A stretch of 64,000 nucleotides of DNA from Candidatus Aenigmatarchaeota archaeon (GCA_043824495.1 JBDRSV010000024.1:107816-171815); one strand, 5' to 3'; shown: positions 901 through 61,763, counted from the stretch's first letter. Made by a program: numbers and translations. The notes: generated by a model not told the origin, from the letters alone.

Positions 901-921
901 ATATCCCTTTAAATGGACAAT
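901..921 (+). repeat. Island-edge motif, copy A
   Basis: ATATCCCTTTAAATGGACAAT at the AT-rich/GC-rich transition. Confidence 0.9.
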
Positions 922-926
922 GCAAA

Positions 927-963
927 GGGAGAGGTGCAGTATTCCACATCTGCACACTCTCCC
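927..963 (-). terminator. Bulged hairpin next to motif A (terminator-like for the gene at 995-2869)
   Basis: GGGAGAGGTGCAG (927-939) pairs with CTGCAC-A-CTCTCCC (950-963); TTT follows on the minus strand. Confidence 0.65.
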
Positions 964-994
964 ACCACATCACCTTTTCAGGCTTTGCAGATTT

Positions 995-2869
995 TTACTT
1001 CAGAAGCGTCATCTTTTTGCTTTCCGTCAGGCTGGCCGTTTGCAACCGATAGAAGTACATACCGGACGCGACGGCCTTACCGTAGCGGTCGGTTCCGTCC
1101 CAGCTAACCTGATGTGTTCCTTCGGGCTGGGACCCGTTGACGAGAGTGGCAACGTTGCGGCCGAGGATATCAAAGACCTCTAGCTTTACGTCTCCTCCCT
1201 GAGTCAACTGATAGGAAATCACGGTTCCGGCGTTGAAGGGGTTCGGGTAGTTCTGGTTCAAGCTGAATGATGTAGGAACGGCTCCTGTTGTCTTGTACGC
1301 GATGTTCAGCGTACCTAATGGAATCCACCCAGCCGGAACTGTCCGGCTGTTGTTGATCTCGTCAGCTATCGTTTTGGCCAACTCGTGATCGCCGAATGGA
1401 TCGTCGATCAAGTTGTCGCAGTATGTTACCGCCTGTGACACAGTCGCGCCGTCATCGCTAATCACAGCGGTTTGTGCCAGTTTGCCGCTAGCGACATTGA
1501 GTAGCAAAGCCATGAGTTGCTGTCTGGCTCGATCAATCATGTCAACGCTGCCCTTGAGGTTCAGCAACGTCTTCGCGACTTCGAGCTTGTCTTCACAAAG
1601 ATCCGACACGGGTGGATCGTACACGACGACCTCGTTCACTGCGTTCGAGTTGAAGTGGCCCGCGATGAGGTCGAGATAGCTACACAGAGTTGAAGCATCG
1701 ATTTGCGCGCGGCCATTCCCACCAGTAGCGACGCCGACGTTGTGTTTCCAGAAGCCGATTGTTCGTTGTTCTCCAGCGTCTGACGGGCATCCCAATTCAA
1801 AGTCGATTTGGGCTGTGCCTTCACAATCGAGATCGACGGACTGTTCGCTCGGAAATGCCGTATACCCGAGGGGGCCAACAAATGATACCATGTAGCTGGC
1901 CTCACCCGGGAGGTTCTCGAAATCGTAGTAACCGGCTTCATCAGTCACAGCCGATTCTACAAGTACACCGGTGGCATCGAAGACATCAATCGTGATACCA
2001 AGAACAGAGCAGTCAGCACTCAGTGTGCCCTCAATTGCGGCGAAGCATTCTTCCTCTCCACCTCCGCATGCACACGTTCCATCTTCCACCTCAATGGCGG
2101 TGATGGTGTTGTCGTAGGCGTCCTTTGACCAGACGACGGTCAACGGCGCGAAGTTGATGACGTCGCATTCGAGATCCTCATCCCGACCACCGATCGTCGC
2201 GAAGTCACTGAGATACACGCCCGTTGTCTTGTCAATGCGAACGATGTTGCCCAGACCATCGCGCCCGATGTAAAGGGTGTTCCCCGTCCCAACAATAACA
2301 CCACTTATTCGATCCAGTGTATTGCCGGCCGCGTCGGTCGGATACAACGTTCCCAGATAGGCTCCCGAGCCCGCATCGAAGTGGTCAATGCCCGTTGATA
2401 CATCATCGGAAACCCAGACACTGTTATCCGTCGCATCAAAGCCAATGCCGTCGATGAAACAGAAGCCCGGTGTTACCACAGAAAACTGGAAAGTGGCTAC
2501 GCCGGTGGTGGGATCGATGAGATACACGTTCGCCGGACATTCGTTGTCACTGCCTCCCCAGATCATGTTGCGCGTATTGTCCCATGCAATAGCGCCGATC
2601 GAAACTGGTGTGCCATCCGGTTTGAAAATGGAAACGAAGCCGAGATCGGTGCCGAATTTGTCTATCGAGTAGAGAGTTGGGTCGAAAGAGTTGGTGTAGA
2701 AAATCACACCATCACATCCAACTGCAACACCGATACCGACACCAGACGAGCTTGGAACAGGAACTGTGACGTTCGTGATGACATCACCGGGAGCTGCCAT
2801 TGACGTAGCGGTGATAGCGGTGAAGAGGCAGAACACAACAAGCGCAGTGAAAGCTGTGAGACGCTTCAT
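995..2869 (-). CDS. Secreted protein: beta-propeller-like region, SdrD-B/CarboxypepD-reg-like Ig domain, C-terminal FlgD-Ig/T9SS-type sorting domain
   Basis: Signal peptide; C-terminus FSLNQNYPNPFNAGTVISYQL...EVFDILGRNVATLV...WDGTD...VASGMYFYRL...KKMTLLK. Confidence 0.85.
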   Translation of the reverse strand: MKRLTAFTALVVFCLFTAITATSMAAPGDVITNVTVPVPSSSGVGIGVAVGCDGVIFYTNSFDPTLYSIDKFGTDLGFVSIFKPDGTPVSIGAIAWDNTRNMIWGGSDNECPANVYLIDPTTGVATFQFSVVTPGFCFIDGIGFDATDNSVWVSDDVSTGIDHFDAGSGAYLGTLYPTDAAGNTLDRISGVIVGTGNTLYIGRDGLGNIVRIDKTTGVYLSDFATIGGRDEDLECDVINFAPLTVVWSKDAYDNTITAIEVEDGTCACGGGEEECFAAIEGTLSADCSVLGITIDVFDATGVLVESAVTDEAGYYDFENLPGEASYMVSFVGPLGYTAFPSEQSVDLDCEGTAQIDFELGCPSDAGEQRTIGFWKHNVGVATGGNGRAQIDASTLCSYLDLIAGHFNSNAVNEVVVYDPPVSDLCEDKLEVAKTLLNLKGSVDMIDRARQQLMALLLNVASGKLAQTAVISDDGATVSQAVTYCDNLIDDPFGDHELAKTIADEINNSRTVPAGWIPLGTLNIAYKTTGAVPTSFSLNQNYPNPFNAGTVISYQLTQGGDVKLEVFDILGRNVATLVNGSQPEGTHQVSWDGTDRYGKAVASGMYFYRLQTASLTESKKMTLLK

Positions 2870-3415
2870 GGATTTTTATTCCTTAGGTTGTGAGGGAAAT
2901 ATGACCCTCCGGGTTTGTTTTTCGATTAGTTTCTGATTGTTTGTCGTTTACCACGTTTCCAAGTTAAGGTCCGCGAATCGCTATTTTCATTGGCATCCTC
3001 TCTTTGGGTTAATGTTGTCCGCACAAATTGCGGGATTAAAAGAAGGAAAGACACAAAAGATAGAGTATGTCTTATGTAGACTGAGAGTAAAATCATTCGA
3101 AGAATAAAGCTAATACTATTAAAACAAACATGCATGTTTGATGTGTTTCTTTTCATGTTTTTTGTGTTAGCCAATGTACCGTTTCTATGGTTAATTGGAT
3201 TGATTGAGTTGCAATCAATACAAATTTAAATGATGTTCGAATGAGTAGCATGATTTAAATTGTATACAAAAATTGACGTTGATTCATCGTCGTTTTTTTG
3301 TGTTTTGGTATTTTTTTTGATTCTAGCTTGTCGCTTTTGTCAAGTCTTTAACTCAAGTATATAGCTTACAGGTATTTAAATGTTTTCTAACACATTTTTT
3401 TTAATTTTCTTTCTT

Positions 3416-3437
3416 TTATCCCTTTAAATAGACATAT
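3416..3437 (+). repeat. Island-edge motif, copy B (variant)
   Basis: TTATCCCTTTAAATAGACATAT, followed by a bulged hairpin at 3443-3506. Confidence 0.85.
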
Positions 3438-4408
3438 AAAAAGGCAAACGGGCGAAGATTTGGAGCCAAACTCTTCTTGATGTCTCACCTCCGCCCGTTA
3501 AATGCCGTTGTCCGGCCTATCAATTTACCCGCCGGTTAGGTGAGCACATGTGCTCGTGTCCCAGAGGCGCATGTTTTCATGCCCTCCTTTGCCGGGTTCT
3601 TACGCGAACGTGCTGCTTGACCGAGATAATGTAGCTGCCAGATTCCCCACAACCTTGTTATTGGTGGAACCGCGACAGCGGTCGGTCCAGTCCGTATGCA
3701 TCGTAGCCTCACTTGGTGAAGGACTGCGAATCAAGAGACGGGGATTCAGAAGAATCCCCGTCTCACGAGTTGACGGTTGGTACGAGATATATCAAAGGAA
3801 GTCTTTATGCCATTGGGTGCATTCCGAAACCTTTAGCCTCGTCCGTCTCCGAGGGATCCTATCAAAGGTTTCATAAAGGAAATTTCATGGACCTCGTTAC
3901 GATAGGATCGGAGTGGCGTAAAGCCACGGCCAGAACCTCGAGGTCCCCCAGGATAAGATCACCGTTTGAATATGAGTCAGCGGTGAACGTAAGGGTGCTG
4001 GCGATTCTTCTTCGCATTCAAACCCTCCAGGGAACACTTCGTAATTTGTGTTGTCAGCGGCTGTTTACGAATCGGCGGTGATCGTTTCCACCACGGTACA
4101 TGTCGGCGTGGTGACAAACGATGAAGAAGCGACTTCAAAACGCGCGCGGCCATTGCTCGGCGGCGGCGAATGAGCCCAGGCATTGACGGCGGTCGCGGCG
4201 GTATTCATCCAGGAAGCGACCACTGGTGACCCGCGAAGGGTCGGTAATCGGTTCATAGAGCAAGCTCCATTTCTTCCGATAGGAAAATTCCAATCCACTT
4301 TACAAACTCTCGCCTAAACAGAAAGTATTGTCACATAACTTTCCGTCGCAAAAGAGAATGTGAAGAGGAAACAATTTCGTACACCTCGTCAAGAGATCGT
4401 CTCCATTT

Positions 4409-4774
4409 TCACCCTACATGGGCTAGGCGAGAGGATAGACCAGTTGCTGATAGAGATGTAGAGGGAACCGTTTTCATCCGAAGATCTCTCCCGTCCCTCA
4501 GGGAGTAAGTTGCTCGTCCACCAGGTTCCCATACCAAGGGAGCTGGCAACTCTGCCATTCTCTCTATCCGACTCTCTGTTGTCATCGCCACTACGGCAAC
4601 AACTCTTAGCCTATCCGGCGTAGGATTATGAGAGTGTAGAGCGAATTCCTCGTTCCATGTTTGTTCTGTATCGCTGCCTGTTATGATATCCAATCCTGAA
4701 AACGGGATTGGGTCAGCGGTATAAACAATACAGGAACCATATATGAGGTAGCAGAGTGTCATGATTCCCAGCAT
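4409..4774 (-). CDS. Hypothetical protein with a hydrophobic N-terminus (possibly truncated)
   Basis: AAGGAG lies upstream of the ATG; 121-aa ORF. Confidence 0.5.
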   Translation of the reverse strand: MLGIMTLCYLIYGSCIVYTADPIPFSGLDIITGSDTEQTWNEEFALHSHNPTPDRLRVVAVVAMTTESRIERMAELPAPLVWEPGGRATYSLRDGRDLRMKTVPSTSLSATGLSSRLAHVG

Positions 4775-4885
4775 GACAACTCCTTACAAGGGCACATGGT
4801 TATATGGTAAATGCTCTCTCCGTCAACAAATCGTGCCCTCTAAGACATGTTTAGGAGAGAAAGGCGACAACTCATGAAGTGTTCT

Positions 4886-5044
4886 TCAGGTGGACCCGTC
4901 ATCACTGTTATTGCGTTGACGGCCTTCTCCTTGACCCGGACTTAGACGTGTGGCTTTCGGTGTTTTCGCGGCGCGTTTCTGCTGTTTTGGACTACGCTTC
5001 TTGTTGCTCGGAAGCCCGTCTCGGGCACCACCGTGACACGTCAT
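4886..5044 (-). CDS. Possible small basic protein (52 aa)
   Basis: Manual translation MTCHGGARDGLPSNKKRSPKQQKRAAKTPK...; GAGG upstream. Confidence 0.25.
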   Translation of the reverse strand: MTCHGGARDGLPSNKKRSPKQQKRAAKTPKATRLSPGQGEGRQRNNSDDGST

Positions 5045-5674
5045 GAAAGACCTCGTTTGTGAGGAGTTCAGTTCAAGCTTGTGCTGGAACTGTTTGGAAC
5101 GAGGAATTGTTACTCTTTACGGCGAGCGATTGTGTGTCATCGTAACTCCTTGACAATGGTTTCCACAAGCTCCAAAATAAAAAAGAGCTGTTGTTTTCAA
5201 ATTCAGTTGGGAATCTCCTAGCCCGCCCCCAGAACTGACTAGAGGAGATCCCCAACTTTTGTACAGCGCACCCCGTGCATTGTTTTCAGGGTGGAGGGGC
5301 CCGGCGGTCAACTGAGCCCCTCACTGGACGAATCGGTCACAGATAACATGTTACGCATTACCGACTCGAAATCTATGCCACGGCAGTAGATGGAAGTGGT
5401 CGCATCTACCGCCGGGCTTCACGACGTTGTGCATTTTGTCGCCTTCAGCCTTACACAACGCCGTTATTTCCCCACCCACAGGGAATTTAATATCGCGGGG
5501 CCTCACTCAGGAGACCCCGCTTCCGTTGGGTTTACTACCGAATTGTTCGGTAGCGTTCTTCCACGACAGACATACGCACATGCGCACGTCTTCATTTCTT
5601 TGAGGACCTACTCATCTCCGATTTGAGTAGGTCCTCGGCTCCCCACAACCCCCCGATCAGCACCGGGAATTTTT

Positions 5675-6900
5675 TTGAGGGGAAATCTGAGCAGATATCT
5701 CAGACTCCCCTCCCGTCAGGTCTACCGACCAGCACTTCCGGTTGGACGCCGGAAATTCTTTATTAGAAGGGGTTTCCCCTCTCCAAGAAACCCCTTCCTC
5801 TTCGGCGTAGCGCGTCTCACGCGCTTTAGTGCATCGATCCCCACCGATCAGGTAAAACCCTTGGATGGTTCTCTCCCCGAACCCCCACTGAAATATTTTG
5901 GAACCCCTCATAGATCCCCGTAATCTCCGAGAGGTTCCGACAGCAGCACCATACAAATGGGACTACCGTGACAATCAAAAATACCGGAATCCACCGCGTC
6001 AGAAGAGGATTCCGGTATTCTACATCGCTGGTTGTGTTGAGAGCTTACCCCTTACTGGTCTTAACGAGTATGTTACGTCGGACTTCCTTTCACCAAATAT
6101 ACGGGTCACTACAGAATACCCGATCGATCCGCTTTGTTGTCTTAATCTCACCAGCGGATAGTGACGCGGTTACAGCCAGCGATTTCGCCTTTATACAACA
6201 GGCGTCTCCAAACCAAAATGGAAATTGGAGTTGTTGCTTCCACACTTCCGGATTTCCCCCTCCGGTAAACTCTAAGGTACTGATAGGTGACCGCTCGTGT
6301 TTCTTGTGTTCGCAATTGCCGATTGCATCAAGCTCTTCGTAGATCTAGATCTGGAAGTAATTAGCAAACGATCACAATAAACAGACAACTGGGAGAAGTC
6401 CATTTCTACCAGTACCTGGATTTTCTAACCCTCGGGAGGTGTGTACAAGCCTAAGCAGAGTTTGTCCTGTTGAATTGGCCCCGAGGGTAAGTGGCCTTCC
6501 GGAAGAGAATTGGTGAGGTCCTGTAACAGAACTCTATCTCATTCCGGGGTAAAGCTCAAGGCACAGCCAGAAGGAGACGTATTACCTTGAGAAGTTGGTC
6601 TCCCGAGTGAAGAAATTCGAGATGTCCCATCGATGAAGGACATCTCTTCTCCACTCGGGCTCATTCGTCAGCCTGGAAGGAGAAGTGCAAGAGTTTTCGC
6701 GCAATTACTCTCTCTCCTCCCGGGAAATTTATGACCTCCTGGTCCGAAACTTGTGCCGCGGTAAACCAGAAGGCGTAACTGCTAGGCTATGTGACGGCCA
6801 CAGCAGTAGGGATCGAATCCAATACACGAAAGACAGCTAAGACTAACTCTGTCTCGTGTGGTTTACGAGTAAAATTCAGAAATCGATAGTCTTCGGCCTC
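5675..6900 (+). pseudogene. Possible decayed gene of unknown family
   Basis: Protein-like stretches in successive + frames (FYIAGCVESLPLTGLNEY..., ETYYLEKLVSRVKKFEM*RTSLL...REIYDLLVRNLC) interrupted by stops and frame changes. Confidence 0.3.
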
Positions 6901-7189
6901 TTCGAGGGAAACTGCTTAAGCGCTTAATTGCAGCGCGTTATGTTTCCTGGTAAGTGACCTGTTCTCTAGGATGTACCGAAGGCTAACTTAGTTAGTCTCG
7001 GGAAATTCGCGTGTGATTGGTAGAAATGAAACATGAAATGTCCTTATATATAAATGTAATTTAATTACTTAAATAGGTTGATGGATAGCTTTAAAAAGGT
7101 ACTATTAAAATTATTTTTTTGTGAAGGGATCGATATACCAAGTGCTTCCAAAAATAAAGAGTAGAAAAAAATAAGAGTGAAAAAAGCAA

Positions 7190-9755: not shown

Positions 9756-10617
9756 AATAATTACCTCGAGTGACCATTTGTCACTATCTGATAGTTAAAA
9801 TATGTATAAAGGGTTTATAAAGCTTTCGGTTAGCTTGCAGTGTGCTGTTTTTGAGCGTAAAAATCGTGTACGAAAGACAATTTTCTTGGGTTTCCATGAC
9901 TTTTGTGCCAACGAAAGACATATTCTGTCTTTAGTAAGAGAGTTAATAAAGATTTCTGTCTCGCGCCTTATAAAGGATCCGAATTGGATATTTTATATAG
10001 TAATTAATTACTATTGTAGAGATCTTTATTTACTTAAGTCTTTACATAAATAATTCTCAAATACTTTTTGTCTTTGCTAAAGTTTAATGCAGATTTTCCT
10101 CGAAACTTTTGTGGAAATTCTTGAAATCAAATGTCTTCTAGTTTTGCTAGAGCTTTTGAAGACATGGAAACTCTCATAAAACCCCAACCGAAAAGTATTT
10201 AAACCCTTTGACTATAATTTCACTATAGATTAGTGACAACAAATTAAGAAATGTCTGAGTTATGTGTGGTGTCAAATCCTACATAACTATCTTTACAATC
10301 TACGCAACTTTGAATAAAAAGAATTTCGGGTTAAACTCGCAATTCTAAACTCAGAGAAATTGAGTGCACAGGAATTTAGGCGCGGCCTAAAATCCCCATA
10401 AGAAATCCAAAAAAATGACACGCTTTGTGTCAAAAAATGTGATTTGAGGGGGTTTGATTTCCTTAGCTCTGAGTATCTACTTTTCGAAAACCACGAAGAC
10501 TCGCGTAACAATTCTAAGCAATAAATATAGTGAAATTCCAGACTTCTGTAGACTTTCGCTGTCTGACATAGAAATTAACAAGTTGACAATAAACGGAAAC
10601 TTCTGGGAGGGATTGTC

Positions 10618-10980
10618 ATGAGAAATATCATGAGCTGTGTTTTCCTGCTGCTCACATTATTCCTGGTGAGTTGTGCGAAAAGTGGTCCGGAGCTGGGGAG
10701 TGATATCCGGATCAGTGGAACAATCGTCGACATGAGCGAAGGAGGTAGTAGGGATTTCCTGATCCAGTCCGGAGGAAAACTCTACCATTTCGGTACTCGA
10801 CTGCAATTTAAATGGAGTAAACTTCGTGCGGGACATTACGTCACCGTGGATGGGAAGTTTGGGGGACCGTGCGAGGAAGCCTCAATGTTCAGACGCTACA
10901 TGTACGACGACGAAGGGAACTTCATCAAGTCCCTCGAGGTCTATGACATCATCCATGTTTCGAACGTGGAGAGGCAGTGA
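10618..10980 (+). CDS. Putative lipoprotein
   Basis: Lipobox FLVSC after a hydrophobic stretch; GGAGG SD. Confidence 0.7.
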   Translation: MRNIMSCVFLLLTLFLVSCAKSGPELGSDIRISGTIVDMSEGGSRDFLIQSGGKLYHFGTRLQFKWSKLRAGHYVTVDGKFGGPCEEASMFRRYMYDDEGNFIKSLEVYDIIHVSNVERQ

Positions 10981-11109
10981 TCCCACTGAGTTCATCCAAT
11001 TCATCGGGTGGACCCAGATGAGATTATTGTCTAAAGGCTAAATCAGCAGGCCTTGAATTGTTGGTAGGGATCATTGGAAGATTCCCAAAAACATGGCAAG
11101 GAGGGCAAC

Positions 11110-11262
11110 ATGTCGCAGGGAACCAAAAACACCAAAGACACAGGAACAAGAGCGTTTCTGGTTATCGACGGAACTACAGGAGACCTCATTCCTGTGAAAG
11201 CATCGTCTGGACGAAAAGCTGAGCAAATCGCCGGCAGCGTAACCAGACAATCCCGCAAATAA
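11110..11262 (+). CDS. Small hypothetical protein
   Basis: GGAGGGCAACATG start (MSQGTKNTK...); the ORF track starts at 11074. Confidence 0.45.
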   Translation: MSQGTKNTKDTGTRAFLVIDGTTGDLIPVKASSGRKAEQIAGSVTRQSRK

Positions 11263-11342
11263 AATTACCCACTGTGAATTCCCCAGGAGTATCATCCGCC
11301 CGGAAGATACTCTGTTCTCCCCCATACTACCATAGGCCACAC

Positions 11343-11480
11343 GGAGCTCATCAGGTTTTCACTTGGTGGGCTCCAGTGAGATCTTTGGTGGTTAACGTTC
11401 CATAACCGTTTCATTCACAACCTTTTGCCGACCTTGTCTGCATTGCAGCTCAAGGAAGTGTGTAAAGGAAGGAGAGTGTC
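11343..11480 (+). repeat. Intergenic module type 1, copy 1 (GAGCTCA...GGTGGGCTC hairpin + CCATAACC...CTTTTGYCGACC hairpin + AAAGGAAGGAGA)
   Basis: Aligns with 15853-15997. Confidence 0.8.
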
Positions 11481-12182
11481 ATGTTATTGCATGTAACAGT
11501 AATAAGCCGCGGAGACAGAACAACGATCGATGTTCCCAGAACAGAATTCAACTGGGATACCAATCAATGTCGCGTAGTTGAAGGTGCAGAGGAAGCTGAA
11601 AGAAATCTCGGGGTGGCGGAGAATCTCGAAATCCGTAAACCCGCGGCTTACCAGGGACCCTATTTATACTGTATTGTAGAGGTGGGGTTCGAGGAAATTT
11701 GTTTTCCCCCGACTTTCCTCAAGTGGATCGAGAATGTTCCCGAGGATGAGAAAAGAGCCATCCTTATCGTTCCCACCAAAACCATCCGAAAGGCCGATGA
11801 TAGTCACTATATGGGATCTATAGATCGTTATAGGTATTATCCTCATGGTGAAGTCTTCCTGATTGGTCGCAGAATCATCGTGAGGAACATCTACCTATCA
11901 CCTGATAACATCAAGATGGTGGTGGATAAAATCCTTGCCCGACTGAGTGACGGCCTGTTCCTCCGGTTGGCCTTTGAGTTTCTCCAGGCTACGCCGATCA
12001 GTGACAATCCTACGGTGACTGGAGAACATATCACCATGTTGGATAATCTCTTCACGGGGACGCGTTCCCTTCGGAGAGGAGATTCAACTCGTCGCGAACG
12101 GTTCAATCATGTTCGGGCCGTGATTGGACATATGGCCAAACACGGGATAGTTCTGTCTGGCAAGATCGAACCCGTGAAGTAA
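11481..12182 (+). CDS. Hypothetical protein
   Basis: 233-aa ORF with strong SD AAGGAG. Confidence 0.75.
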   Translation: MLLHVTVISRGDRTTIDVPRTEFNWDTNQCRVVEGAEEAERNLGVAENLEIRKPAAYQGPYLYCIVEVGFEEICFPPTFLKWIENVPEDEKRAILIVPTKTIRKADDSHYMGSIDRYRYYPHGEVFLIGRRIIVRNIYLSPDNIKMVVDKILARLSDGLFLRLAFEFLQATPISDNPTVTGEHITMLDNLFTGTRSLRRGDSTRRERFNHVRAVIGHMAKHGIVLSGKIEPVK

Positions 12183-12223
12183 TCAACGGCTTGGAAACCA
12201 AGTCAAATCAACGACAATGAAAG

Positions 12224-12556
12224 TTGAGGTGTAATATGAATAGGCGAATACAGAGTATGATTGTGATGACTGCGACTTTGATAGCTGTTGCAGTCTTTCT
12301 CCAAGTCTCACAGCTTCACGCGGCACATTTGATGGCAACCGCAATTGCAATTGCGGTTGTGGTGATGATCGTTGTTAACATGGGAAGAGTTCCCAACACT
12401 CGGCAGAAGTTTCGGAACTTCTCTGTCGGAGCCGTTTTCGGGAGCATCTTCCTGTGGGAGTTGTTCAAGGTTACGTTCTTGAATCACCCTGCGGCTCTTT
12501 GGAGTGTGGTTGTACTCGGAGCTGCGGCAGTCTCATTTCTGACGTTCCGCCGGTAG
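12224..12556 (+). CDS. Small 4-TM membrane protein
   Basis: Hydrophobic segments; the likely start is the ATG at 12236. Confidence 0.7.
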   Translation: MRCNMNRRIQSMIVMTATLIAVAVFLQVSQLHAAHLMATAIAIAVVVMIVVNMGRVPNTRQKFRNFSVGAVFGSIFLWELFKVTFLNHPAALWSVVVLGAAAVSFLTFRR

Positions 12557-12570
12557 TACTGAAGTTCACC

Positions 12571-12618
12571 GGGGATCCCGATCAATCTGGTTGGGATCCC
12601 CTCAACCTGACAATAAAC
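12571..12618 (+). repeat. Intergenic module type 2, copy 1 (GGGGATCC hairpin + CAAC(C/T)TGACAAT(A/T)AAC)
   Basis: Aligns with 13482-13529. Confidence 0.85.
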
Positions 12619-12627
12619 TGTTGTTAA

Positions 12628-13473
12628 ATGTTCCATTACACCAAGGAGGGCGCAATGCGTCACCAACGTTTCATCACCACAGTACTGGCACTCATGTTCT
12701 TGACTGTGCCGGCAATGTTCAGCAGTGCGGTTCTGGCCGATCCGATTTCATCCGGAGACGGTCAAATGTATGTGGTCCAACAGGGAGATTGGTTGACGCG
12801 GCCGATCATCCCGACACTCTACTCGGATGTGTTGAAGCCAGGCGACTTGAAGAGTGCTCTCTGGATCGCTGACATCTTCGATACACTCAACATTAACATC
12901 ACCCACCGCGACAAAATTCGGGCGTATGATACCATCATGGCGCCGTCATTCGCGGCGTTGAAGAAGTACAAACATCTCGCACCCGCCGACGTGGTCATCA
13001 ACCTGTTCGCCACGTATGATATCGCGTCCATGGAACTTGTGGACGCCGAGTTTGTAAGAAAGCGCATCGAGGACTTTGAGGGTACTTACTGGTACAAAAA
13101 TCGAGCCGCGTGGGCCCGAATTTTCGGAGTCGGTAATGGCACGTATGTCTGCGGTGACACCGTGATGCCGTTCTCATGGTTCATGAGCTGCAATACGGAC
13201 GGTAATACGGGAATGACTATCTCCATCTCCATGGACGAAGGAGATCTCACCGCAGTTCGCAAGGTTCCAGGTACACGTAACGGATTCTGGGGAGCCAGTC
13301 GTGACAATAAGTTCACATACGTGGGCTTCGGCAACGACTGGATCGATCGTTGCGACTGGAATGACGAGACCGAGAGCTGGGACATTCCACCAGTTCTGAA
13401 TGAGATCGTCGGAACTCTCAACAACTTTCCATTCGTCCAGTATATGACCGTCGTCGCGTACGAACTGGAATAG
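12628..13473 (+). CDS. Secreted protein with a LysM-like start; paralog of 13535-14899
   Basis: Signal peptide LALMFLTVPAM...LAD; YVVQQGDWL; shared NTDGN and C-terminal pattern; likely start 12655. Confidence 0.75.
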   Translation: MFHYTKEGAMRHQRFITTVLALMFLTVPAMFSSAVLADPISSGDGQMYVVQQGDWLTRPIIPTLYSDVLKPGDLKSALWIADIFDTLNINITHRDKIRAYDTIMAPSFAALKKYKHLAPADVVINLFATYDIASMELVDAEFVRKRIEDFEGTYWYKNRAAWARIFGVGNGTYVCGDTVMPFSWFMSCNTDGNTGMTISISMDEGDLTAVRKVPGTRNGFWGASRDNKFTYVGFGNDWIDRCDWNDETESWDIPPVLNEIVGTLNNFPFVQYMTVVAYELE

Positions 13474-13481
13474 TTGTTACA

Positions 13482-13529
13482 GGGGATCCTGACCAATTCG
13501 GTTGGGATCCCTTCAACTTGACAATTAAC
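13482..13529 (+). repeat. Intergenic module type 2, copy 2
   Basis: GGGGATCCTGACC-AATTC-GGTTGGGATCCCT...CAACTTGACAATTAAC. Confidence 0.85.
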
Positions 13530-13534
13530 GTAAC

Positions 13535-14899
13535 ATGTTAACAATGAATACCAACAGAGAAGGAGAAAGTCAAATGTGTAACATCATCATCCGTACCATC
13601 GTGGCACTGGCACTCATGGTTCTGATCGTGCCGGCCATCACCAACATCGCAATTGCGGACGGAACGCCGTGTGGTCTCACCGTAGGTAATGGCAACGACA
13701 TCGATCGCGACTTCGTTGCATTCCTCAACAAAGAAGGAATCAGATGGTTAACAATCGAGGAATTCGTTGAGTGCTACTCCCAACTGATCGGTCCAGGTAG
13801 TACCATGTTGAGCACCACTCGGGGATATGGCTGGGGATATATTGACGTTCCTTTCAAGTTTGGCGATTCGGTCGCGTCTATAGTGAACATGGAGATCATG
13901 CCAGGCGTCCGGATCAATATGGCTTGGGATCAAGCGGTCATCTTCTACAAATATGCGAATAATCATGGAATGCATATTCTGAAGAAGACGGAGAATGACC
14001 GTGAGGTTCCGGCCTGGAGCGGCTTGATTGATGAAGCTACGGTGCGTCAACATGTCAACGGCTTCGAAGTGTCCGCGCAGATTCCGAGTGATGTTCTGGA
14101 ATCGGATGTTGCGATTATCCGGATGCGAGATTTAAAGGACGCCTACTTGGCCGAGAACACCGACGTTATCGAGTCTTACCTCATCGAGAAGTTTGACCTC
14201 GACGACGATTCCGAGCCGTATTCTGACAATCGGCCAAATATATTTCATCGCAGTGGCGAAGTCTTACTGGACTCGGAGATGTTCTTCGTGTATGAAGGTC
14301 TGGAAATTCTCAATCTCATCATCAATGATCGGTGGATTGGTGTACGATTCCCCGGATCGACCTATATCCACTTCATCAACATCGGACCGAGAAAAGTCCA
14401 CGACTTGAATGCCAACTTCGTCGAGACGAAAACTCCGAACAACACCGGCGGTCAGATCAGTATCCCGCAGGATGTGATCGAAAAGATGACGTGGATCGAT
14501 TCCGTCTATTCGGATAGGATGTCCCCGAATCCGATGTTAGGTTTCGGAAACGGTGAGTACCTGGCGAGCTCTGGGATCGTTTCGTTCGCGTGGGTTGCCT
14601 GGACCAACACCGATGGCAACCTCCAGTTCTATCTCAATGTTCTCCTTAACATTGATCATCAGGTGACGATCGAGACTGTGTCTCACTACGGTGGGCCTGA
14701 TGTTTGGAGGGCGTGGAGTCCGAATCAGACCTGCACAGAGGTGGAGACTGGAAACGGCTGGTGTTATATTCACTGTTCCCAGTCGGAAAGTGGACCTCGA
14801 ATCTGCGACTATAGACAAGCCTTGGACGATGCAGTCGCGGCGTTCAATGGCATCGATTTCTTCACGAACATGAAGGTGATCATGTACACGGTGAAGTAA
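13535..14899 (+). CDS. Secreted hypothetical protein; paralog of 12628-13473
   Basis: Signal peptide LALMVLIVPAI...IAD; NTDGN; likely start 13573. Confidence 0.75.
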   Translation: MLTMNTNREGESQMCNIIIRTIVALALMVLIVPAITNIAIADGTPCGLTVGNGNDIDRDFVAFLNKEGIRWLTIEEFVECYSQLIGPGSTMLSTTRGYGWGYIDVPFKFGDSVASIVNMEIMPGVRINMAWDQAVIFYKYANNHGMHILKKTENDREVPAWSGLIDEATVRQHVNGFEVSAQIPSDVLESDVAIIRMRDLKDAYLAENTDVIESYLIEKFDLDDDSEPYSDNRPNIFHRSGEVLLDSEMFFVYEGLEILNLIINDRWIGVRFPGSTYIHFINIGPRKVHDLNANFVETKTPNNTGGQISIPQDVIEKMTWIDSVYSDRMSPNPMLGFGNGEYLASSGIVSFAWVAWTNTDGNLQFYLNVLLNIDHQVTIETVSHYGGPDVWRAWSPNQTCTEVETGNGWCYIHCSQSESGPRICDYRQALDDAVAAFNGIDFFTNMKVIMYTVK

Positions 14900-15184
14900 A
14901 GCCGAACGCCACGAATTACTAATCCGCTCTTCTTCCCAAAGAAGTGTGGCTAGTGTGAAAGGAGTATGGGAAGGTTCCACAGTAGTAGCATCAACGGCAA
15001 AAAGTAAAAGACAAAAAAATGAAGGCCAAACCCGAGGAGGAACTCGAAGTGAAGACGAAACGAAGGTCATGCCAATATCCCATTTCGCCCATGATGGCGA
15101 CTCATATTCTCATAGTCTGACCGGCCGCCGGCGACGCCACGGGCCTCTTATATAGTTAGCGGGGCCCATCGCCAATGCAGTCAA

Positions 15185-15269
15185 AATCCCGGGTAGGCTT
15201 CAACCCCTACCCGGGGTTCCAAATGAGCTCATCTAGTTCAGATATTTTCTAGGTGGGCCCATTTGGAAT
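15185..15269 (+). repeat. Double-hairpin module (AATCCCGGG stem + TTCCAAATGAG...TTTGGAA stem), copy 1
   Basis: Aligns with 15817-15905. Confidence 0.85.
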
Positions 15270-15332
15270 TGTAAATGATTGTTGACTGTTCAATGAGCGT
15301 TCCGAAAGGAACATTGCAAGGAGATTTTTATC

Positions 15333-15797
15333 ATGACACAGCAGATGACATCAGTACCAGATGGTTGGGGCGGAGCAGGTGGCGACAGTCTCGGCACAGA
15401 TGCACTCGAGCTTCTGAAGAAAATGGGATTCGACAATGCAATGGGACAAGCGTTGCTCGGCAGCTTTAATCCACAGGGTTTCGTGGATGCGCTTCTCACG
15501 TTCCGACCGTTCCCGGTTGGCGGAGTCTCTCCCGAAGCTCGGAACGAGAGCAGAGAAGCTCAGTGGATTTATCTCACATGGATCTTCACCAGTCGGCAGA
15601 GAGCCTCCTTTCCCGTCGAAGGGGTGAGTGGCCTTGCTGACTTCGTGGATATTGTCCGGAAAGCACAGAGCGATGCGGACGCGAACGAACATGCAGTTCG
15701 AATCTTGTCCAGGTTTGGGTGTGTCGATCTCCTCGTTGGTGAAGGTCGGACCTTCTTGCACACGAAAGCCATCGATTTCGCTAATTCCCAAACGTAA
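15333..15797 (+). CDS. Hypothetical protein
   Basis: 154-aa ORF with an AGGAG SD, flanked by two copies of the double-hairpin module. Confidence 0.7.
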   Translation: MTQQMTSVPDGWGGAGGDSLGTDALELLKKMGFDNAMGQALLGSFNPQGFVDALLTFRPFPVGGVSPEARNESREAQWIYLTWIFTSRQRASFPVEGVSGLADFVDIVRKAQSDADANEHAVRILSRFGCVDLLVGEGRTFLHTKAIDFANSQT

Positions 15798-15816
15798 GTC
15801 CGCGACATCACCAACC

Positions 15817-15997
15817 AATCCCGGGAACAAGACAGTTCAATCTGTTCCCGGGTTCCAAATGAGTTCATGTGGTTTGATTTCTTGACTAGGTGGGCTCATT
15901 TGGAATTGAGTTGTAGTAGAACCATAACCCATTCACGACCTTTTGTCGACCCTGTCTGATATCAGTTCAGGGAAGAATCTAAAGGAAGGAGAATTCA
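15817..15997 (+). repeat. Double-hairpin module copy 2 fused to type-1 leader copy 2
   Basis: Matches both 15185-15269 and 11343-11480. Confidence 0.85.
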
Positions 15998-17989
15998 ATG
16001 CATTCACTCCAAGAAGTAAAAGAACACATCAAGACAACGATGTGCAAAGCGGTTCAAGTGAATCGCTGGATGATGTGGATCGCGCTCGTCGTCATATGTA
16101 TTGTGGCGATTGAGTTGTTCGTTTGGTTGCCTTCACTGCCAGAAGAGGCGCAAGACGTCCTTTCCCCATTCATAGAAGGTGGAAACAGGAATGCAGGCAC
16201 GTTATTACTCCACTTCTTCTGTTTCATGGGTGCATTGGTGTCTATCTTCTTCAAAATCTTCGGTCCGATCACAAGATCTTATGATAATACACTTTTCTGG
16301 GAACTCCATCTGGGTGGAACAAAAAGGATCGGATTCCGCCTGGGTGACTGGCCTACTGGTGTGTTCATTGAAGCGGCAGACGTTCTCAGTGATTTACCAG
16401 CGAATGTCAGGAAAAGAATTCCGTGCACCCAGTATGCTGTTTCTCGAATTAAAAGCGTAACGGAATTCGACGACAGCGGTAGAGCCATCGTCCCACGGGA
16501 TGAGAGTGTGTCTTCTGTGAGATTCGCCACAGTGGATGATGGTCGACCGGGAACGCTCGACTTGGATAGGGTGTTCTCCTGGGCGCATAAGTACATCCGA
16601 GGCTATTATATCTGCCTGGCCTTTACATGTCTGTTCCTGGCTTGGCCGGTGATAACCGGCTACTCGATCGCGAGCTTCATGCACGACCTCCCGGTCCAGA
16701 TCCACGACATCGCTGTTGACCCATCTCAGAATTCGACGAAAGTAATCGTCAGTTCTGATCGCAATGTCCGGTATGACTCAAGAATCGAGGTTGCAGATGA
16801 CTGTGTCTGCTCCCGATTCATTCTGAACATATACCCGGCAAAGTGTGATTTCCTGGAGGAGATCTTTGCCAGTGACTATGTAATGAGAGGGTATTATGGG
16901 GCTCGAACCAACACCGGGCAGCTCTCCGAAGCAACTGGATGGAATGGTGTCAGGCAAATCAACATCAGACAAGTTGGTGACACCATCAAGATTGTACTCG
17001 GCCTGAAAGATATGGTTGAGTACGCAATGAGTCGCTCGTCAGAGCACGGCACAAAGGATCTGGTCGTTGGTCTGGACACGCCAGTCGAGTCCAAACAGAC
17101 ATCGGGCGAATATTGGACCGCGAACAAGTTCGCAGATCAGTACGAAGTTCCTGACAACAATGCCCGTCGCGAGTCATCGTGTGGTGAATGGAAGTCGTTC
17201 GTCAGATTTGTATCTGCGGATAGTAACAACGTATACTTCTCTGCCAGATACGGTGGAGTGTACAGAGTGGATATGAATGGATGGATTGACACGATCGTCC
17301 CAAACAACGAGGTTGATTACTACCACACGCCAGTGAGTAGCGGTAATAAACTCGCTGGCATCCATGATGGGAATGATCTCTGTATTGTGGATATGGATAC
17401 CAGAAAGGTCAAGAACGTCACCCATGGACAAATATGGGACGTCGATTGGGTCTCGGACACCGGACTCGTGTTCTGGAGAGATCTTGATGGTGTCTGTTAC
17501 TACTCCCTCTCTGCGGACTCGTCTTGGTCTTTGAACAAAAAGGCCAAATTCCCATCTGTGTGTGGGGATAAGATATTCTACCTCACACACTTACGCACCC
17601 ATCGGGATGAGTGGGATTCCACACTAATCTGGGAGATGAGCCTTGACGGGTCTTCCAGAACCGTAGCTAGGTTGAAGGGAGGCTACTCACACCTGAGTAT
17701 GTCTTCGGACTGCTCAATTGCAGTTCTGAAAGAGCCGTATAGTTCTGACCGCACGTGGGTCAATAGAATCAAAACATTCTCCTTCAACGACTGCATTATG
17801 ACAACACTGACGGAGTGTGGTGAGTCTCCAAGGATCACTACAGACAATCGAATTGTTTATGTCAAGTTGTATCCTGTGGAGGGGCGTGGGGATTTCAACT
17901 CGAACTCAGAAGTCCGGATCATGGATCTGGACGGCAGAAACGACACCTTGATTGTCAACAGAGAGGAACTCCGGAAGTTTCCGATGTAA
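15998..17989 (+). CDS. Membrane-anchored protein with AMIN-like and TolB-like beta-propeller regions
   Basis: Three N-terminal TM segments; VNGVRQINIRQVGDTIKIVLGL-like segment (AMIN-like); repeated propeller-like blades in the C-terminal half. Confidence 0.65.
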   Translation: MHSLQEVKEHIKTTMCKAVQVNRWMMWIALVVICIVAIELFVWLPSLPEEAQDVLSPFIEGGNRNAGTLLLHFFCFMGALVSIFFKIFGPITRSYDNTLFWELHLGGTKRIGFRLGDWPTGVFIEAADVLSDLPANVRKRIPCTQYAVSRIKSVTEFDDSGRAIVPRDESVSSVRFATVDDGRPGTLDLDRVFSWAHKYIRGYYICLAFTCLFLAWPVITGYSIASFMHDLPVQIHDIAVDPSQNSTKVIVSSDRNVRYDSRIEVADDCVCSRFILNIYPAKCDFLEEIFASDYVMRGYYGARTNTGQLSEATGWNGVRQINIRQVGDTIKIVLGLKDMVEYAMSRSSEHGTKDLVVGLDTPVESKQTSGEYWTANKFADQYEVPDNNARRESSCGEWKSFVRFVSADSNNVYFSARYGGVYRVDMNGWIDTIVPNNEVDYYHTPVSSGNKLAGIHDGNDLCIVDMDTRKVKNVTHGQIWDVDWVSDTGLVFWRDLDGVCYYSLSADSSWSLNKKAKFPSVCGDKIFYLTHLRTHRDEWDSTLIWEMSLDGSSRTVARLKGGYSHLSMSSDCSIAVLKEPYSSDRTWVNRIKTFSFNDCIMTTLTECGESPRITTDNRIVYVKLYPVEGRGDFNSNSEVRIMDLDGRNDTLIVNREELRKFPM

Positions 17990-18008
17990 GCGTGTAGTTA
18001 TCATTCAC

Positions 18009-18038
18009 ACCCCGCCTGGATTCAATTCCAGGCGGGGT
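18009..18038 (+). terminator. Perfect GC hairpin (terminator-like)
   Basis: ACCCCGCCTGGA-TTCAAT-TCCAGGCGGGGT. Confidence 0.7.
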
Positions 18039-18070
18039 TGATCATGAAATAAAGAGAAGGGGAGTGTACC

Positions 18071-19075: not shown

Positions 19076-19115
19076 AACCAACATTATCCTTTCAACATTT
19101 GATGGAGGACGGGTC

Positions 19116-19462
19116 ATGAAACTAGTCTTAAATCGTAGGCATCTTATAGATCCCGCCAGTGTCATTGGGCCACGCGTGAACTGGTTGTTCTCCTGAATGG
19201 CCAAGAGGTTCAGGTGCGTCCTATCGACCAGACGATAATTCTGATCGGACGCGATCCGGAATGTGACGTAATACTCGATAATCGCGCCGTCGACTTCTTC
19301 CATGCTCACATTGATTTCGGCGAGAATTTTGTAGTAATTGACAACGTGTCACTCAACGGCACGTTTGTCAACGGAGAAAAGGTCGAGAAAGCGGTTCTCC
19401 GTCCTGGTGATGTGATCACAATAGCCAGGTATGAGATTCACATCCGGTCCCTCCGGAAGTAG
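19116..19462 (+). pseudogene. FHA-domain gene with an apparent 2-bp frameshift near the 5' end
   Basis: IGRDPECDVIL...HAHI...SLNGTFVNG (FHA); the SD-linked ATG at 19116 is out of frame; removing 2 bp from CACGCGTGAA gives PRELVVLLNGQEV in frame. Confidence 0.6.
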
Positions 19463-19523: not shown

Positions 19524-19526
19524 TGT

Positions 19527-49112: not shown

Positions 49113-50003
49113 TTATCTGACCATGTCAGCTAATTTATCAAGAATGCCTAGTATGTATTTGTCTTTATCAGGATCATCTATAATTAAAGTTCCTTTGGTG
49201 TTCAATGACATAGATTCTCTTATCAAATACTCTAGGTTTAGGTCAGACTTTGATAGAGGAATTGTCCTAGTCATTCCAGAAGGGCCGTAAGATACCCCTG
49301 AGAAGAAGAAATAAGCACTGTTTAGCCATTGCTGACCAATAGATGCTCTCACCTCGTTGAGAATCTGTTTGAAATCGTTCTGTACCCTGAGAGCTCCTGC
49401 GCCTCTTGCATGAACATGAGCCCAGTTAATTACTGGTTCTGTTGATTGTGTTCTCTTTACTATGTCTATAACATCTTCTAAACTACCAACTTCGTTCGTT
49501 TTACCTGTTGTTTCTATTCCTATAGTTGTTGTTGTTCTTTCTCCTGTGATTATTTCATTTATTTTGTATACCACAAGCTTCTGTGCCTGATCTCTAGGCA
49601 TCATTGTGTAAAATGTGGGTGGTAGTATTAGAATTCTACAATCCATTATAGATGTGATTGTGACTAAAATCTTGAGCATTTCATCTAATTGTTCTGGGTT
49701 ATCTGGGAACTTAGTAACATGAATTGAGAGTTCAATGTTGAATTTATTTGCCAATTCTTTTATTTTTAATAAATTTCCGTAATGGACCTTGTATAAGTCA
49801 GTTGATGTTTTAACATTTTTGAATAGATCGTATGGAAGAACAAATGCTTTCAAACCAATTCTGTATAATTCCTTCAGAACTTCTAGAGCATCTTCAACTG
49901 TTTTTACAACAGGTATTTTTGATGTTCCATGTGCGATCCCTAGTCTCATGCCTAGCCTTTCTTGGATCTTCAATGTCTTCTTACGTATAATCATGTCTTG
50001 CAT
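49113..50003 (-). CDS. Endonuclease IV-like TIM barrel, degenerate
   Basis: SIH; GIETTGK; NWAHVHAR; FFSGVSYG. Confidence 0.75.
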   Translation of the reverse strand: MQDMIIRKKTLKIQERLGMRLGIAHGTSKIPVVKTVEDALEVLKELYRIGLKAFVLPYDLFKNVKTSTDLYKVHYGNLLKIKELANKFNIELSIHVTKFPDNPEQLDEMLKILVTITSIMDCRILILPPTFYTMMPRDQAQKLVVYKINEIITGERTTTTIGIETTGKTNEVGSLEDVIDIVKRTQSTEPVINWAHVHARGAGALRVQNDFKQILNEVRASIGQQWLNSAYFFFSGVSYGPSGMTRTIPLSKSDLNLEYLIRESMSLNTKGTLIIDDPDKDKYILGILDKLADMVR

Positions 50004-60218: not shown

Positions 60219-60754
60219 ACATATATATGTGTATGTACTACTTATAAAGTTTTCGTGTTTAGGAGGAATTGGAGCTCTCCTGATATATGAGATGAGATGA
60301 TGCTGTTCTCCCAATAGTAAAGTATTTAAGCCCAAAAAGGATATATTTCTATATATGTCACCATTTGTAAGTGACAACTATTATAATCATCAAGTAACAA
60401 ATATCACCATTTCATGTTCCCCTTAAAACAAAAAGAAAATTCACAGAATTCAGTAAGAATTTACTAGATTCGAAGACTTCCATGAGTTTGCACAAGCATT
60501 CAGCCTTTCAAGACACACAAGAAAATTCTGCAAAATCGCAGAAATTTAGTCGTTTGGAAGGATCTGACAAGCATAGTGTAAGCTCTCTTGATAGCGATTT
60601 CTGAGAGTGAATTTTCTGATCAATATATGTCTTTTAACCCGACTTTTCTCTGTCTGGCGTGACTTTCGCTAAACAAAACAAAAACCCCAACTTGACTGTC
60701 TCAACGGAGGTGAAACAAAAAAGACAGTTGACAAATCACAGAAGTTTATCATCT

Positions 60755-60782
60755 AACCAGTCAAGTTCTTGGTTTTGTATGC
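60755..60782 (+). repeat. Direct repeat, left copy
   Basis: AACCAGTCAAGTTCTTGGTTTTGTATGC. Confidence 0.9.
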
Positions 60783-60822
60783 TTACAGAATCGAGGCTTG
60801 ACTCACAAAGAAGGAGGACGTC

Positions 60823-61551
60823 GTGGCAAATCATGGCGATCTCAACGGTGCTGCCATAAGTAAACTTAATGAAATTCGTAGGCAGCTCGATCAGGTTCAT
60901 GGATATCCATTCGACCCGGTAGGTCTCAACGAAGCACTCAGAGTCATCGCAGCAGGAGAATTCGATGCTCTTTCCACATCACATGAACTGATAGTTCATG
61001 TAGGAGACGCTGAAGCCGCTCTCAAACGCATCAGGGGCGCCACTCCAGAGACAGTGATAATGCACGTCCCAAATAACCATGAAGCTTCTCTCAGGGTGTG
61101 TGAACGTAGCTTCGAGGAGCTTTTGAGGGACTTCCCGCGGCACTTGACAACTTGGAGGTGTCGGAAAGTCACGGACGACGATCAATTGAGCGTCATGGTT
61201 CGTCTTGTGAAACTCTCACGTGACATGAGCTTTAGAGAGTTCGTGAGGTTCTTCCGTTCAATCGGCCTCAGACCCGCGAAGCTCCGCACACTTGGAGCAT
61301 TCATTGGTGCGTATCCAAAACTTTTGGGAAGCGCAGAAGATCCTTTCTGTACTCTCGCACCTGGGAATAACTTCGGAGCATTATCGCGACACTGTCCATT
61401 GAGTGGGTCGGAATACATTCCTTACACCTCGTGGTCATCCAAAGATGATCGTTTGTTGCTTCTAACATATTACCTCTTTCGCAAAGAGGAGAAGATGCGA
61501 GCGGATGATAGGGTTCTCATGGTGCCGACGAGTGCACCCGTGTGGATCTGA
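60823..61551 (+). CDS. Hypothetical protein resembling families common in Patescibacteria
   Basis: GGAGG SD; VRLVKLSRDMS...GLRPAKLRTLGAFIGAYPKLL pattern recognised from memory only. Confidence 0.65.
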   Translation: MANHGDLNGAAISKLNEIRRQLDQVHGYPFDPVGLNEALRVIAAGEFDALSTSHELIVHVGDAEAALKRIRGATPETVIMHVPNNHEASLRVCERSFEELLRDFPRHLTTWRCRKVTDDDQLSVMVRLVKLSRDMSFREFVRFFRSIGLRPAKLRTLGAFIGAYPKLLGSAEDPFCTLAPGNNFGALSRHCPLSGSEYIPYTSWSSKDDRLLLLTYYLFRKEEKMRADDRVLMVPTSAPVWI

Positions 61552-61581
61552 TCCAAAAACAGACCAACTAACCACGAATTC

Positions 61582-61610
61582 AACCAGTCAAGTTTCTTGG
61601 TTTTGTATGC
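61582..61610 (+). repeat. Direct repeat, right copy
   Basis: AACCAGTCAAGTTTCTTGGTTTTGTATGC (one extra T). Confidence 0.9.
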
Positions 61611-61683
61611 CGATGTTCACGCTAATAATCCTCCCGAATCATAGTCTCCAGGCAGAGGATTATTACATGTTGTAACGAATAAC

Positions 61684-61740
61684 AACCAGAGCAAGGTAAG
61701 TTCGCGTCTCGAAAGGATGCGGATCCTGCTCTGGTTTTTT
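61684..61740 (+). terminator. Bulged hairpin + T-tract next to motif E
   Basis: AACCAGAGCA-A-GG ... CCTGCTCTGGTT followed by TTTT. Confidence 0.7.
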
Positions 61741-61742
61741 AT

Positions 61743-61763
61743 ATTGTCTAATTAAAGGGATAT
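61743..61763 (-). repeat. Island-edge motif, copy E
   Basis: ATTGTCTAATTAAAGGGATAT, identical to copy C. Confidence 0.9.

Follow-up and report, generated by a model that had tools for sequence, protein, structure and literature searches.

A putative IS6-family transposon end marks the GC-rich gene cassettes of an aenigmatarchaeal genome

How does an archaeon with a tiny genome take in, hold, and express genes from another domain of life? The DPANN archaea, which have such genomes and depend on other cells, make cross-domain gene gain an open question, and a 64,000-nucleotide stretch from a Candidatus Aenigmatarchaeota archaeon (GCA_043824495.1, JBDRSV010000024.1:107816-171815) puts that question in concrete form. 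In this stretch, called the window here and numbered from its first letter, a short polar motif stands at one edge of each of five GC-rich islands, and a preliminary description, made from the window alone, proposed that the motif belongs to an undescribed DNA-capture or cassette system. What is the motif, which protein goes with it, and what does it do beside the islands? Based on the observations outlined below, we identify the motif as a likely end of an IS6-family insertion sequence (IS) and the small gene beside its first copy as a likely descendant of the DNA-binding part of an IS6 transposase. The coupling of motif and islands points to a transposon-derived way of holding foreign genes in this chromosome and, probably, of exchanging them.

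The window belongs to a metagenome-assembled genome (MAG) of 1.01 Mb in 29 contigs, with 35% GC and 80% completeness by marker genes. Five matches to the motif consensus lie in the window, at 901-921 (+), 3416-3436 (+, with 3 mismatches), 19527-19547 (-), 40208-40228 (+), and 61743-61763 (-), against 0.04 expected in shuffled sequence. Each stands at a switch from about 33% to about 50% GC with its GACAAT end toward the island, as first described, and the conserved block around it is about 27 nt long, exceeding the 21 bp noted at the outset; in the orientation of the cargo it reads TATAT-TGTCTAATTAAAGGGATA-TA, with the motif at its core. Does the pattern hold beyond the window? A position-matrix scan of the genome found 19 strong copies (30 to 44 bits), a single degenerate copy at window positions 459-488 (21 bits), and two weak matches (15 and 17 bits), both away from GC switches; shuffled DNA yields 3 matches of 12 bits or more. 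A two-state hidden Markov model (HMM) of GC content delimits 38 GC-rich segments, 19 of them large (0.8 to 9 kb, 47 to 56% GC, about 55 kb together). Every one of the 19 large segments has one strong motif at one edge, and every one of the 19 strong copies borders a large segment, so the coupling seen in the window extends through the genome; these units, which we call accessory cassettes, make up about 5% of its DNA.

The polarity is equally regular. In 19 of 19 islands the motif lies at the 3' edge relative to the cargo genes, and all 41 island open reading frames (ORFs) of at least 160 aa are read toward it, which bears out the earlier statement that cargo is transcribed toward the motif. 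Five opposite-strand ORFs are short (102 to 159 aa) and ambiguous: the two in islands I8 and I16 are overlapped by cassette-strand ORFs of similar length, two more belong to I15, an island poor in ORFs, and the fifth, in I2, has hardly any overlap. At three window copies the motif lies 17 to 22 nt past the stop codon of a convergent gene, likewise as described before. The claim that the far ends of the islands have no matching inverted copy also holds in the matrix scan, which found no second full end there, inverted or direct, with the exception of the degenerate copy at 459-488.

Where does the motif come from? In a search over one genome per species, elements about 1 kb long whose left end is this same 18-mer, with flanks that also match, turned up in Woesearchaeota, Pacearchaeota, Nanoarchaeota, Methanoperedens, and other archaea. 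In these elements the motif is followed directly by a TATA box, then by orf1, which encodes 97 aa with a zinc ribbon (Zn-ribbon) plus helix-turn-helix (HTH), and then by orf2 (about 207 aa). The orf2 product of intact elements (loci L126 and L133) matches the DDE transposase family PF13610 (DDE_Tnp_IS240) at 42 to 48 bits, compared with a cut-off of 27, and its best NCBIfam model is IS6, at a score under that model's cut-off. The right end of intact elements shares about 15 terminal nucleotides with the left end, a CTGTC core occurs at both ends, and the tips read GA rather than the usual GG; L126 is flanked by a 9-nt direct repeat that is compatible with an 8-bp duplication. Because these features match the IS6 family as reviewed, with its short terminal inverted repeats with a cTGTt core, 8-bp target duplication, and DDE transposase (PMC7986276), the identification of the motif block, by sequence comparison, as the left terminal inverted repeat and subterminal region of a zinc-finger-clade IS6-family IS is well supported. 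The proposal that the motif derives from a recombination or insertion site thus proved apt, in the specific form of a transposon end. The same hairpin-motif architecture as in our cassettes, described below, occurs in a record labelled a complete chromosome (CP070801.1), and none of 12 motif matches on viral contigs, surveyed with a viral vector in mind, has the cassette-style hairpin and T-tract.

Two further observations concern the wider distribution of such ends. A Nitrospirales chromosome (OY763007.1) contains at least seven identical copies of a bacterial repeat that ends in the same 18-mer followed by AATCCGA (L085, L091, L093, L098, and L150-L152), and similar ends occur in Dadabacteria and Thermodesulfobacteriota records; this repeat looks like a bacterial mobile-element end that may be related to the archaeal one. 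A Methanoperedens MAG (L089, L090, L154, L161) has at least four motif-bearing left ends with the start of orf1, all at contig ends, which suggests a multicopy element that breaks the assembly.

If the motif is a transposon end, is any of the transposase present? An orf1 query against the genomes of the archaeon's own family matched window positions 595-876, inside an ORF at 475-879, with 43% identity (E = 1e-20). Compared in turn with the orf1 proteins, this segment is 40 to 45% identical, both CxxC pairs are invariant, and the HTH region is kept. Residues 43 to 93 of the window protein align to positions 2 to 52 of the NCBIfam IS6 transposase profile, and there are weak NCBIfam matches, under cut-off, to the IS1 and IS1/IS1595 zinc-binding domains. 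It is well supported by these alignments that the product of ORF 490-879 corresponds to the N-terminal DNA-binding module of an IS6 transposase, without the DDE domain. The gene stops at 879, 22 nt before the motif at 901; the preliminary description had counted it as a host gene, which is better replaced by a transposase-derived one. Its remark that no recombinase is visible in the window was right in that no catalytic domain is present, and missed this transposase DNA-binding domain. The word "undescribed" likewise needs qualifying, given that motif and protein both belong to a known family.

Do gene and motif travel together? Stand-alone short homologues of the Zn-ribbon/HTH gene occur in 21 of 46 genomes of the archaeon's own family (f1) and in 11 of 44 of a second family (f27). 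Counted among these related genomes, f1 has 19 genomes with both motif and gene, 6 with the motif only, 2 with the gene only, and 19 with neither (Fisher p = 6e-6), and f27 has 7, 3, 4, and 30, respectively (Fisher p = 8e-4). Among the copies listed, the gene lies less than 100 nt from a motif in 12 genomes, with about 5 more when copies with 2 or 3 mismatches are counted; the genomes with the gene near a motif span three families, and the gene is often flanked by two motifs.

How is a cassette built? From the far end toward the motif, it begins with an archaeal TATA promoter and a structured, AT-rich leader, continues with a GC-rich transcription unit that is co-directional, and closes with a hairpin, its T-tract, and the motif. 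Because all of these parts are present, the island is a complete, self-contained expression cassette. In the window the features are as follows.

459-488, + strand: degenerate motif copy (21 bits, position matrix), a promoter-like element just upstream of the Zn-ribbon/HTH gene
490-879, + strand: stand-alone Zn-ribbon and HTH gene with no DDE domain; conserved part at 595-876
897-927, + strand: motif copy 1, the putative IS6 left-end repeat (matrix/consensus); outer tip toward I14
927-963, - strand: terminator-like hairpin of I14, then a T-tract (hairpin survey)
995-2869, - strand: I14 cargo, a 624-aa surface protein of Zixibacteria type with a type IX secretion system (T9SS) sorting tail (Pfam domains)
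2870-3265, - strand: AT-rich leader and promoter of I14, with a TATA box and a TCATG-type start box
3412-3442, + strand: motif copy 2, a variant of 30.5 bits (matrix/consensus)
3443-7015, - strand: I15, a GC-rich block of 3.6 kb; hairpin at 3447-3499
10197-10617, + strand: promoter (TATA box at 10197) and leader of I16
10618-19075, + strand: I16 cargo, eight co-directional ORFs, the first with a lipoprotein-type signal
19487-19523, + strand: hairpin of I16 (hairpin survey)
19521-19551, - strand: motif copy 3 (matrix/consensus)
40204-40234, + strand: motif copy 4 (matrix/consensus)
40232-40272, - strand: hairpin of I17 (hairpin survey)
40304-42270, - strand: I17 cargo, three ORFs, including one for a 300-aa protein
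42271-42494, - strand: leader and promoter of I17
60380-60822, + strand: promoter and leader of I18 (leader family B)
60823-61551, + strand: I18 cargo, one 242-aa ORF with no Pfam family
61685-61735, + strand: hairpin of I18 (hairpin survey)
61737-61767, - strand: motif copy 5 (matrix/consensus)

A hairpin and a short T-run directly precede the motif in 19 of 19 islands. The hairpin sequence varies, its stability exceeds that of control windows drawn from the islands (Mann-Whitney p = 3e-7), and the loop limit of the generic terminator scan leaves these hairpins out. It is within the T-tract that the outer tip of the motif is joined, and the chromosome lies on the motif's inner side. One bacterial relative of the I14 cargo likewise terminates in a hairpin and T-run; the hairpin would thus appear to belong to the cargo. 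At the far ends, a TATA box, a TCATG-type start box, or both, together with a leader of about 170 to 400 nt, stand upstream of 16 of the 19 cassettes. The TATA box is the genome's usual one, and the leaders, of which we recognize two families (A and B), are AT rich, contain hairpins of their own, and stop no more than tens of bases short of the first start codon. Identical flank types recur on cassettes whose cargo is unrelated, and a search with profiles of both leader families found no leader without a cassette, that is, no empty landing pad. Two copies of the CGAAAGACA word, which is typical of leader family A, lie at 9870-9925, upstream of the I16 promoter, and may be left over from the leader of a previous cassette. 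Pairing between the motif and family A leaders, which might amount to a weak inverted repeat, was considered and dropped, being short, absent from other leaders, and located inside the inserted unit. Islands as known structured RNAs were dropped as well, as Rfam and tRNA scans of the window gave no matches.

Is the cargo foreign? For part of it foreign origin is shown, and for the remainder base composition suggests it. The best relatives of the I14 protein, 45 to 62% identical, are from Zixibacteria-type bacteria, one of them among genes that are plainly bacterial; the I17 protein of 300 aa is 49 to 51% identical to the products of genes that are native to MAGs with a Micrarchaeota label. Neither the I14 nor the I17 cargo genes were detected in any of the other 370 genomes of the phylum. 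The preliminary description, which took the cargo as a whole to be foreign, is in this respect upheld for I14 and I17 and goes further than can be demonstrated for all of the cargo: the 663-aa protein of I16, the largest island, has no relative among 1.8 billion representative proteins, and a word-indexed search, exhaustive HMMER, and the Atlas gave no relatives for the I16 proteins. I15, at about 50% GC, also ends in a hairpin and motif; neither strand has an ORF longer than 124 aa, and ten fragments of the island gave no Pfam match. It is either a decayed or a noncoding cassette. Elsewhere in the genome, cassettes carry genes for a sigma-70 factor, a thiolase, an enoyl-CoA hydratase, acyl-CoA and 3-hydroxyacyl-CoA dehydrogenases, M20 and M32 peptidases, and an EamA transporter. 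The sigma-70 gene, of bacterial type and complete with regions 2, 3, and 4, is the sole cargo of one cassette (L003:780-1610, G000:C5) and has no obvious use in an archaeon. Outside the cassettes, at window positions 30275-32800, an intein with a LAGLIDADG domain interrupts a myo-inositol-1-phosphate synthase gene.

Do the cassettes come and go? Comparison of occupied and unoccupied sites indicates that they do, in line with the polymorphic occupancy that had been put forward as support for a capture system. In a sister species (G321) the I17 site is empty: the two flanking convergent genes overlap at their 3' ends, with neither motif nor cassette between them. The whole unit from promoter to motif, about 40192-42503, is absent there. 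Because the empty site has no motif, the motif arrived with the cassette, and the earlier notion of an attI-like target that preexists in the chromosome does not fit. The edges of the I17 insert show only a 6-bp repeat, read at 68% identity to the empty site. At the I16 site (10197-19547) the sister species has a different cassette with a different type of leader, and in three genera the interval between the syntenic Zn-ribbon/HTH gene and HerA holds different cassettes.

Could the motif also act as a promoter? The sequence TTTAAAT peaks sharply 26 to 30 nt before start codons in this genome; most of its mRNAs are therefore leaderless or nearly so. In at least seven genomes the Zn-ribbon/HTH gene starts about 20 to 50 nt after a motif-like box in the TTTAAAT-containing orientation, and in one of them (G290) a TATA box stands at position -29 of the gene. 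Because of this placement, the motif is the predicted core promoter of the Zn-ribbon/HTH gene and, by analogy with IS1 InsA and Tnp26, is probably also its operator. At the cassette ends the motif is so oriented that the promoter element points antisense into the cargo. At one cassette (L003), the next host gene has, exactly 28 nt upstream of its start codon, a TTTATAT made up of the T-run and repeat tip (G000:C5:22630-22653), and this cassette end may also provide that gene's promoter.

How might these pieces fit together? The homology of motif and protein, their co-occurrence and adjacency, the anatomy of the cassettes, and the empty and alternative sites are direct observations. As a probable, if by no means assured, account, we favor one in which the left end of an IS6 element and its DNA-binding module were domesticated in this aenigmatarchaeal lineage, so that the repeat now closes and joins foreign cassettes. 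We posit that an IS6 element would have been domesticated in this lineage and its Zn-ribbon/HTH module kept as a stand-alone gene at a conserved locus, while single copies of the repeat would close each accessory cassette with the outer tip joined within the terminator T-tract. The Zn-ribbon/HTH protein would bind the repeat as Tnp26 binds IS26 ends. Joining and exchange of units would then take place at the repeat, as the site at the cassette end, by IS26-like targeting of ends, with catalysis supplied in trans by an unassembled or external DDE partner. The repeat, which contains the genome's canonical TATA box, may in addition be a protein-controlled promoter/operator pointing antisense into each cassette. 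IS26-like end-targeted joining would agree with the polarity, with the position of the joint within the terminator T-run, and with the way cassettes are stacked beside the Zn-ribbon/HTH gene.

Several observations weigh against the domestication account. With PF13610 and orf2 queries, no DDE transposase was found in the 80%-complete genome, and only 4 of 46 genomes of the family have DDE matches, all of them weak; because of this, the catalytic step is without a candidate enzyme. Each cassette has one repeat, whose tip is turned to the cargo and away from the chromosome, and no second end, an arrangement that does not fit simple two-ended transposition. The cassette I11 is flanked by a 322-bp direct repeat, 93.5% identical between its copies (C24:47029-47350 and 49252-49573), which corresponds to the 3' end of the gene for a 407-aa tyrosine integrase (L227, G000:C24:44622-48842); this pattern looks like a homologous, Campbell-type single-crossover insertion of a homology-bearing circle. 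G300, a genome of this family in a single contig, contains the motif in four perfect copies, yet two different queries found no Zn-ribbon/HTH gene in it, and the co-occurrence of motif and gene among related genomes overstates independence. It is because of the missing DDE enzyme, the single end per cassette, and the homologous-looking I11 repeat that the joining mechanism is something we infer; the identity of the motif and protein is well supported, whereas how the cassettes join and move is not.

Which other explanations deserve weight? The main one, which we regard as unlikely though a serious competitor, is that the motif is purely regulatory: hairpin, T-tract, and repeat would together form a 3' module, a terminator plus an operator or antisense promoter, that insulates or silences foreign units, while the cassettes move by homologous or illegitimate recombination only and the repeat has no recombination role today. 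Such a module would agree with the motif being the apparent core promoter of the regulator's own gene, with the failure to find a catalytic transposase in the genome, with the 322 bp of duplicated homology around I11, and with the behavior of IS1 InsA, a transposase N terminus that acts as a repressor at element ends. It accounts poorly, however, for the near-perfect repeat that every species-specific new cassette has at the same T-tract joint position, and for the distance of 17 to 22 nt between repeat and convergent stop codon at three window cassettes, which is what a joint would give; moreover, shared flanks on unrelated cargo require a joining mechanism. The remaining explanations are weaker than this one. 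An integron-like system, in which the hairpin and conserved core would be an attC-type site recombined by a genomic tyrosine recombinase, is improbable. It would explain why co-oriented cassettes, each with a terminal hairpin and a conserved core, stand in tandem array at a conserved locus, and six genes of the genome do pass the Pfam cut-off for tyrosine recombinases, next to a further, weaker match; one gene ends 54 nt from a motif, and none lies at the locus between the Zn-ribbon/HTH gene and HerA. Yet the conserved block lies outside the hairpin and matches an IS6 end, and the paired attC cores (R''/L'' and L'/R', GTTRRRY/RYYYAAC) were not seen at the 19 sites, inspected by eye, where the hairpins vary and the conserved block lies 3' of the stem. 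The cassettes have promoters of their own and up to about 8 to 10 genes, homologues of the integrase adjacent to I11 are in most relatives on contigs other than those of the motif copies listed, and the motif strings are absent from the supplements of the paper on archaeal integrons (PMC9668308).

Might the cargo instead have arrived as RNA? In that case foreign transcripts would have been reverse transcribed whole, from about the ribosome-binding site as far as the terminator, and joined between leader and repeat. The cargo does consist of whole co-directional transcription units that end exactly in the terminator T-tract, with leaders that reach to tens of bases from the first start codon; on the other side, the genome's sole reverse transcriptase is a single gene, nontemplated tails were not seen, and targeting of terminators by an IS6-type end gives the same polarity, so we consider this route highly improbable. 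Least probable of all, in our estimation, is that the motifs are inert scars of dead IS elements or that the islands are chimeric assembly joins. The motif is, after all, an apparent IS end and the genome a MAG of 29 contigs, but the 19 near-identical copies are all cut at the same point and are conserved across two families. The hairpin-motif form also occurs in CP070801.1, G300 has its four motif copies on one contig, the islands lie inside a 171-kb contig with host genes on both sides, and the closest database relative of a cargo protein is at most 62% identical.

What follows from these findings? Cassettes differ between sister species, yet one transposon-derived site tags them all, and two families have conserved the protein that likely binds it. 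Protein and 27-bp site together offer a two-part handle for testing how an archaeon fixes, expresses, or silences foreign genes, and the motif itself is a simple sequence tag with which to spot such imports in metagenomes.

How do these cassettes compare with systems already known? Mobile insertion cassettes (MICs) and transposase-less IS6-type cargo elements are likewise nonautonomous cargo units with IS6-type end sequence, but they have two inverted ends and an 8-bp duplication, whereas the cassettes here have one end with its tip toward the cargo. ISEcp1 and ISCR capture adjacent genes in a one-ended fashion, in units that contain the transposase gene, the ISCR enzyme being of the HUH type. 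The cassettes resemble them in having one conserved end beside captured DNA of variable length and an outward promoter at that end. They differ in that no HUH enzyme is linked to the motif, as it would be in IS91/ISCR or IS200/IS605 systems: the genome has no match to a Y2 HUH transposase, and its single Y1 (IS200/IS605-type) transposase gene (L244, G000:C23:4162-4518) lies on a 5-kb contig without the motif. Nothing points to the ori/nic-type end that had been suggested or to an HUH mechanism. In IS1, InsA is the N terminus of the transposase, with a Zn-ribbon and an HTH, and it binds the element ends and represses the promoter there. The window protein is similarly small and stand-alone, with a likely binding site that overlaps its own promoter; unlike InsA, it is encoded by a single-copy chromosomal gene found across two archaeal families, and its approximately 19 putative sites lie at cassette ends rather than inside a transposon.

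The closest relatives by sequence are the pseudo-compound transposons and translocatable units of the IS6/IS26 family (PMC7986276, PMC6807381). There, as here, the tip of the repeat abuts blocks of foreign genes that vary in length; intact elements that bear our motif have a DDE_Tnp_IS240 orf2, and the window protein matches the N-terminal HTH region of the transposase. The aenigmatarchaeal cassettes depart from this pattern in having neither a transposase gene nor a second repeat, with only about 27 bp of the element kept, and in the single polarity of their cargo, its terminator hairpin at the end, and its own archaeal promoter and leader. Clusters of attC sites and integron gene cassettes without an integrase have been reported in Archaea (PMC9668308), and integron cassettes are like ours in being co-oriented, in having a hairpin-containing 3' site, in forming a variable array beside a conserved gene, and in drawing cargo from another domain. 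They are unlike ours in that the conserved site here is a putative IS6 end outside the hairpin, that promoter elements stand upstream of 16 of the 19 cassettes where integron cassettes are promoterless, that one unit may hold many genes, and that no IntI was identified. Do we then have a transposase-derived counterpart of the integron? Tentatively, and with more doubt than conviction, we speculate that an IS6 DNA-binding protein and a 27-bp single repeat could form a platform where terminator-cut foreign transcription units acquire archaeal promoter-leader modules and undergo insertion, stacking, and exchange in DPANN chromosomes, with the repeat acting as a switchable antisense promoter over the imported units. 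Should joining indeed take place at the repeat, the system would represent a second, independently evolved route to cassette platforms beside that of the integrons.

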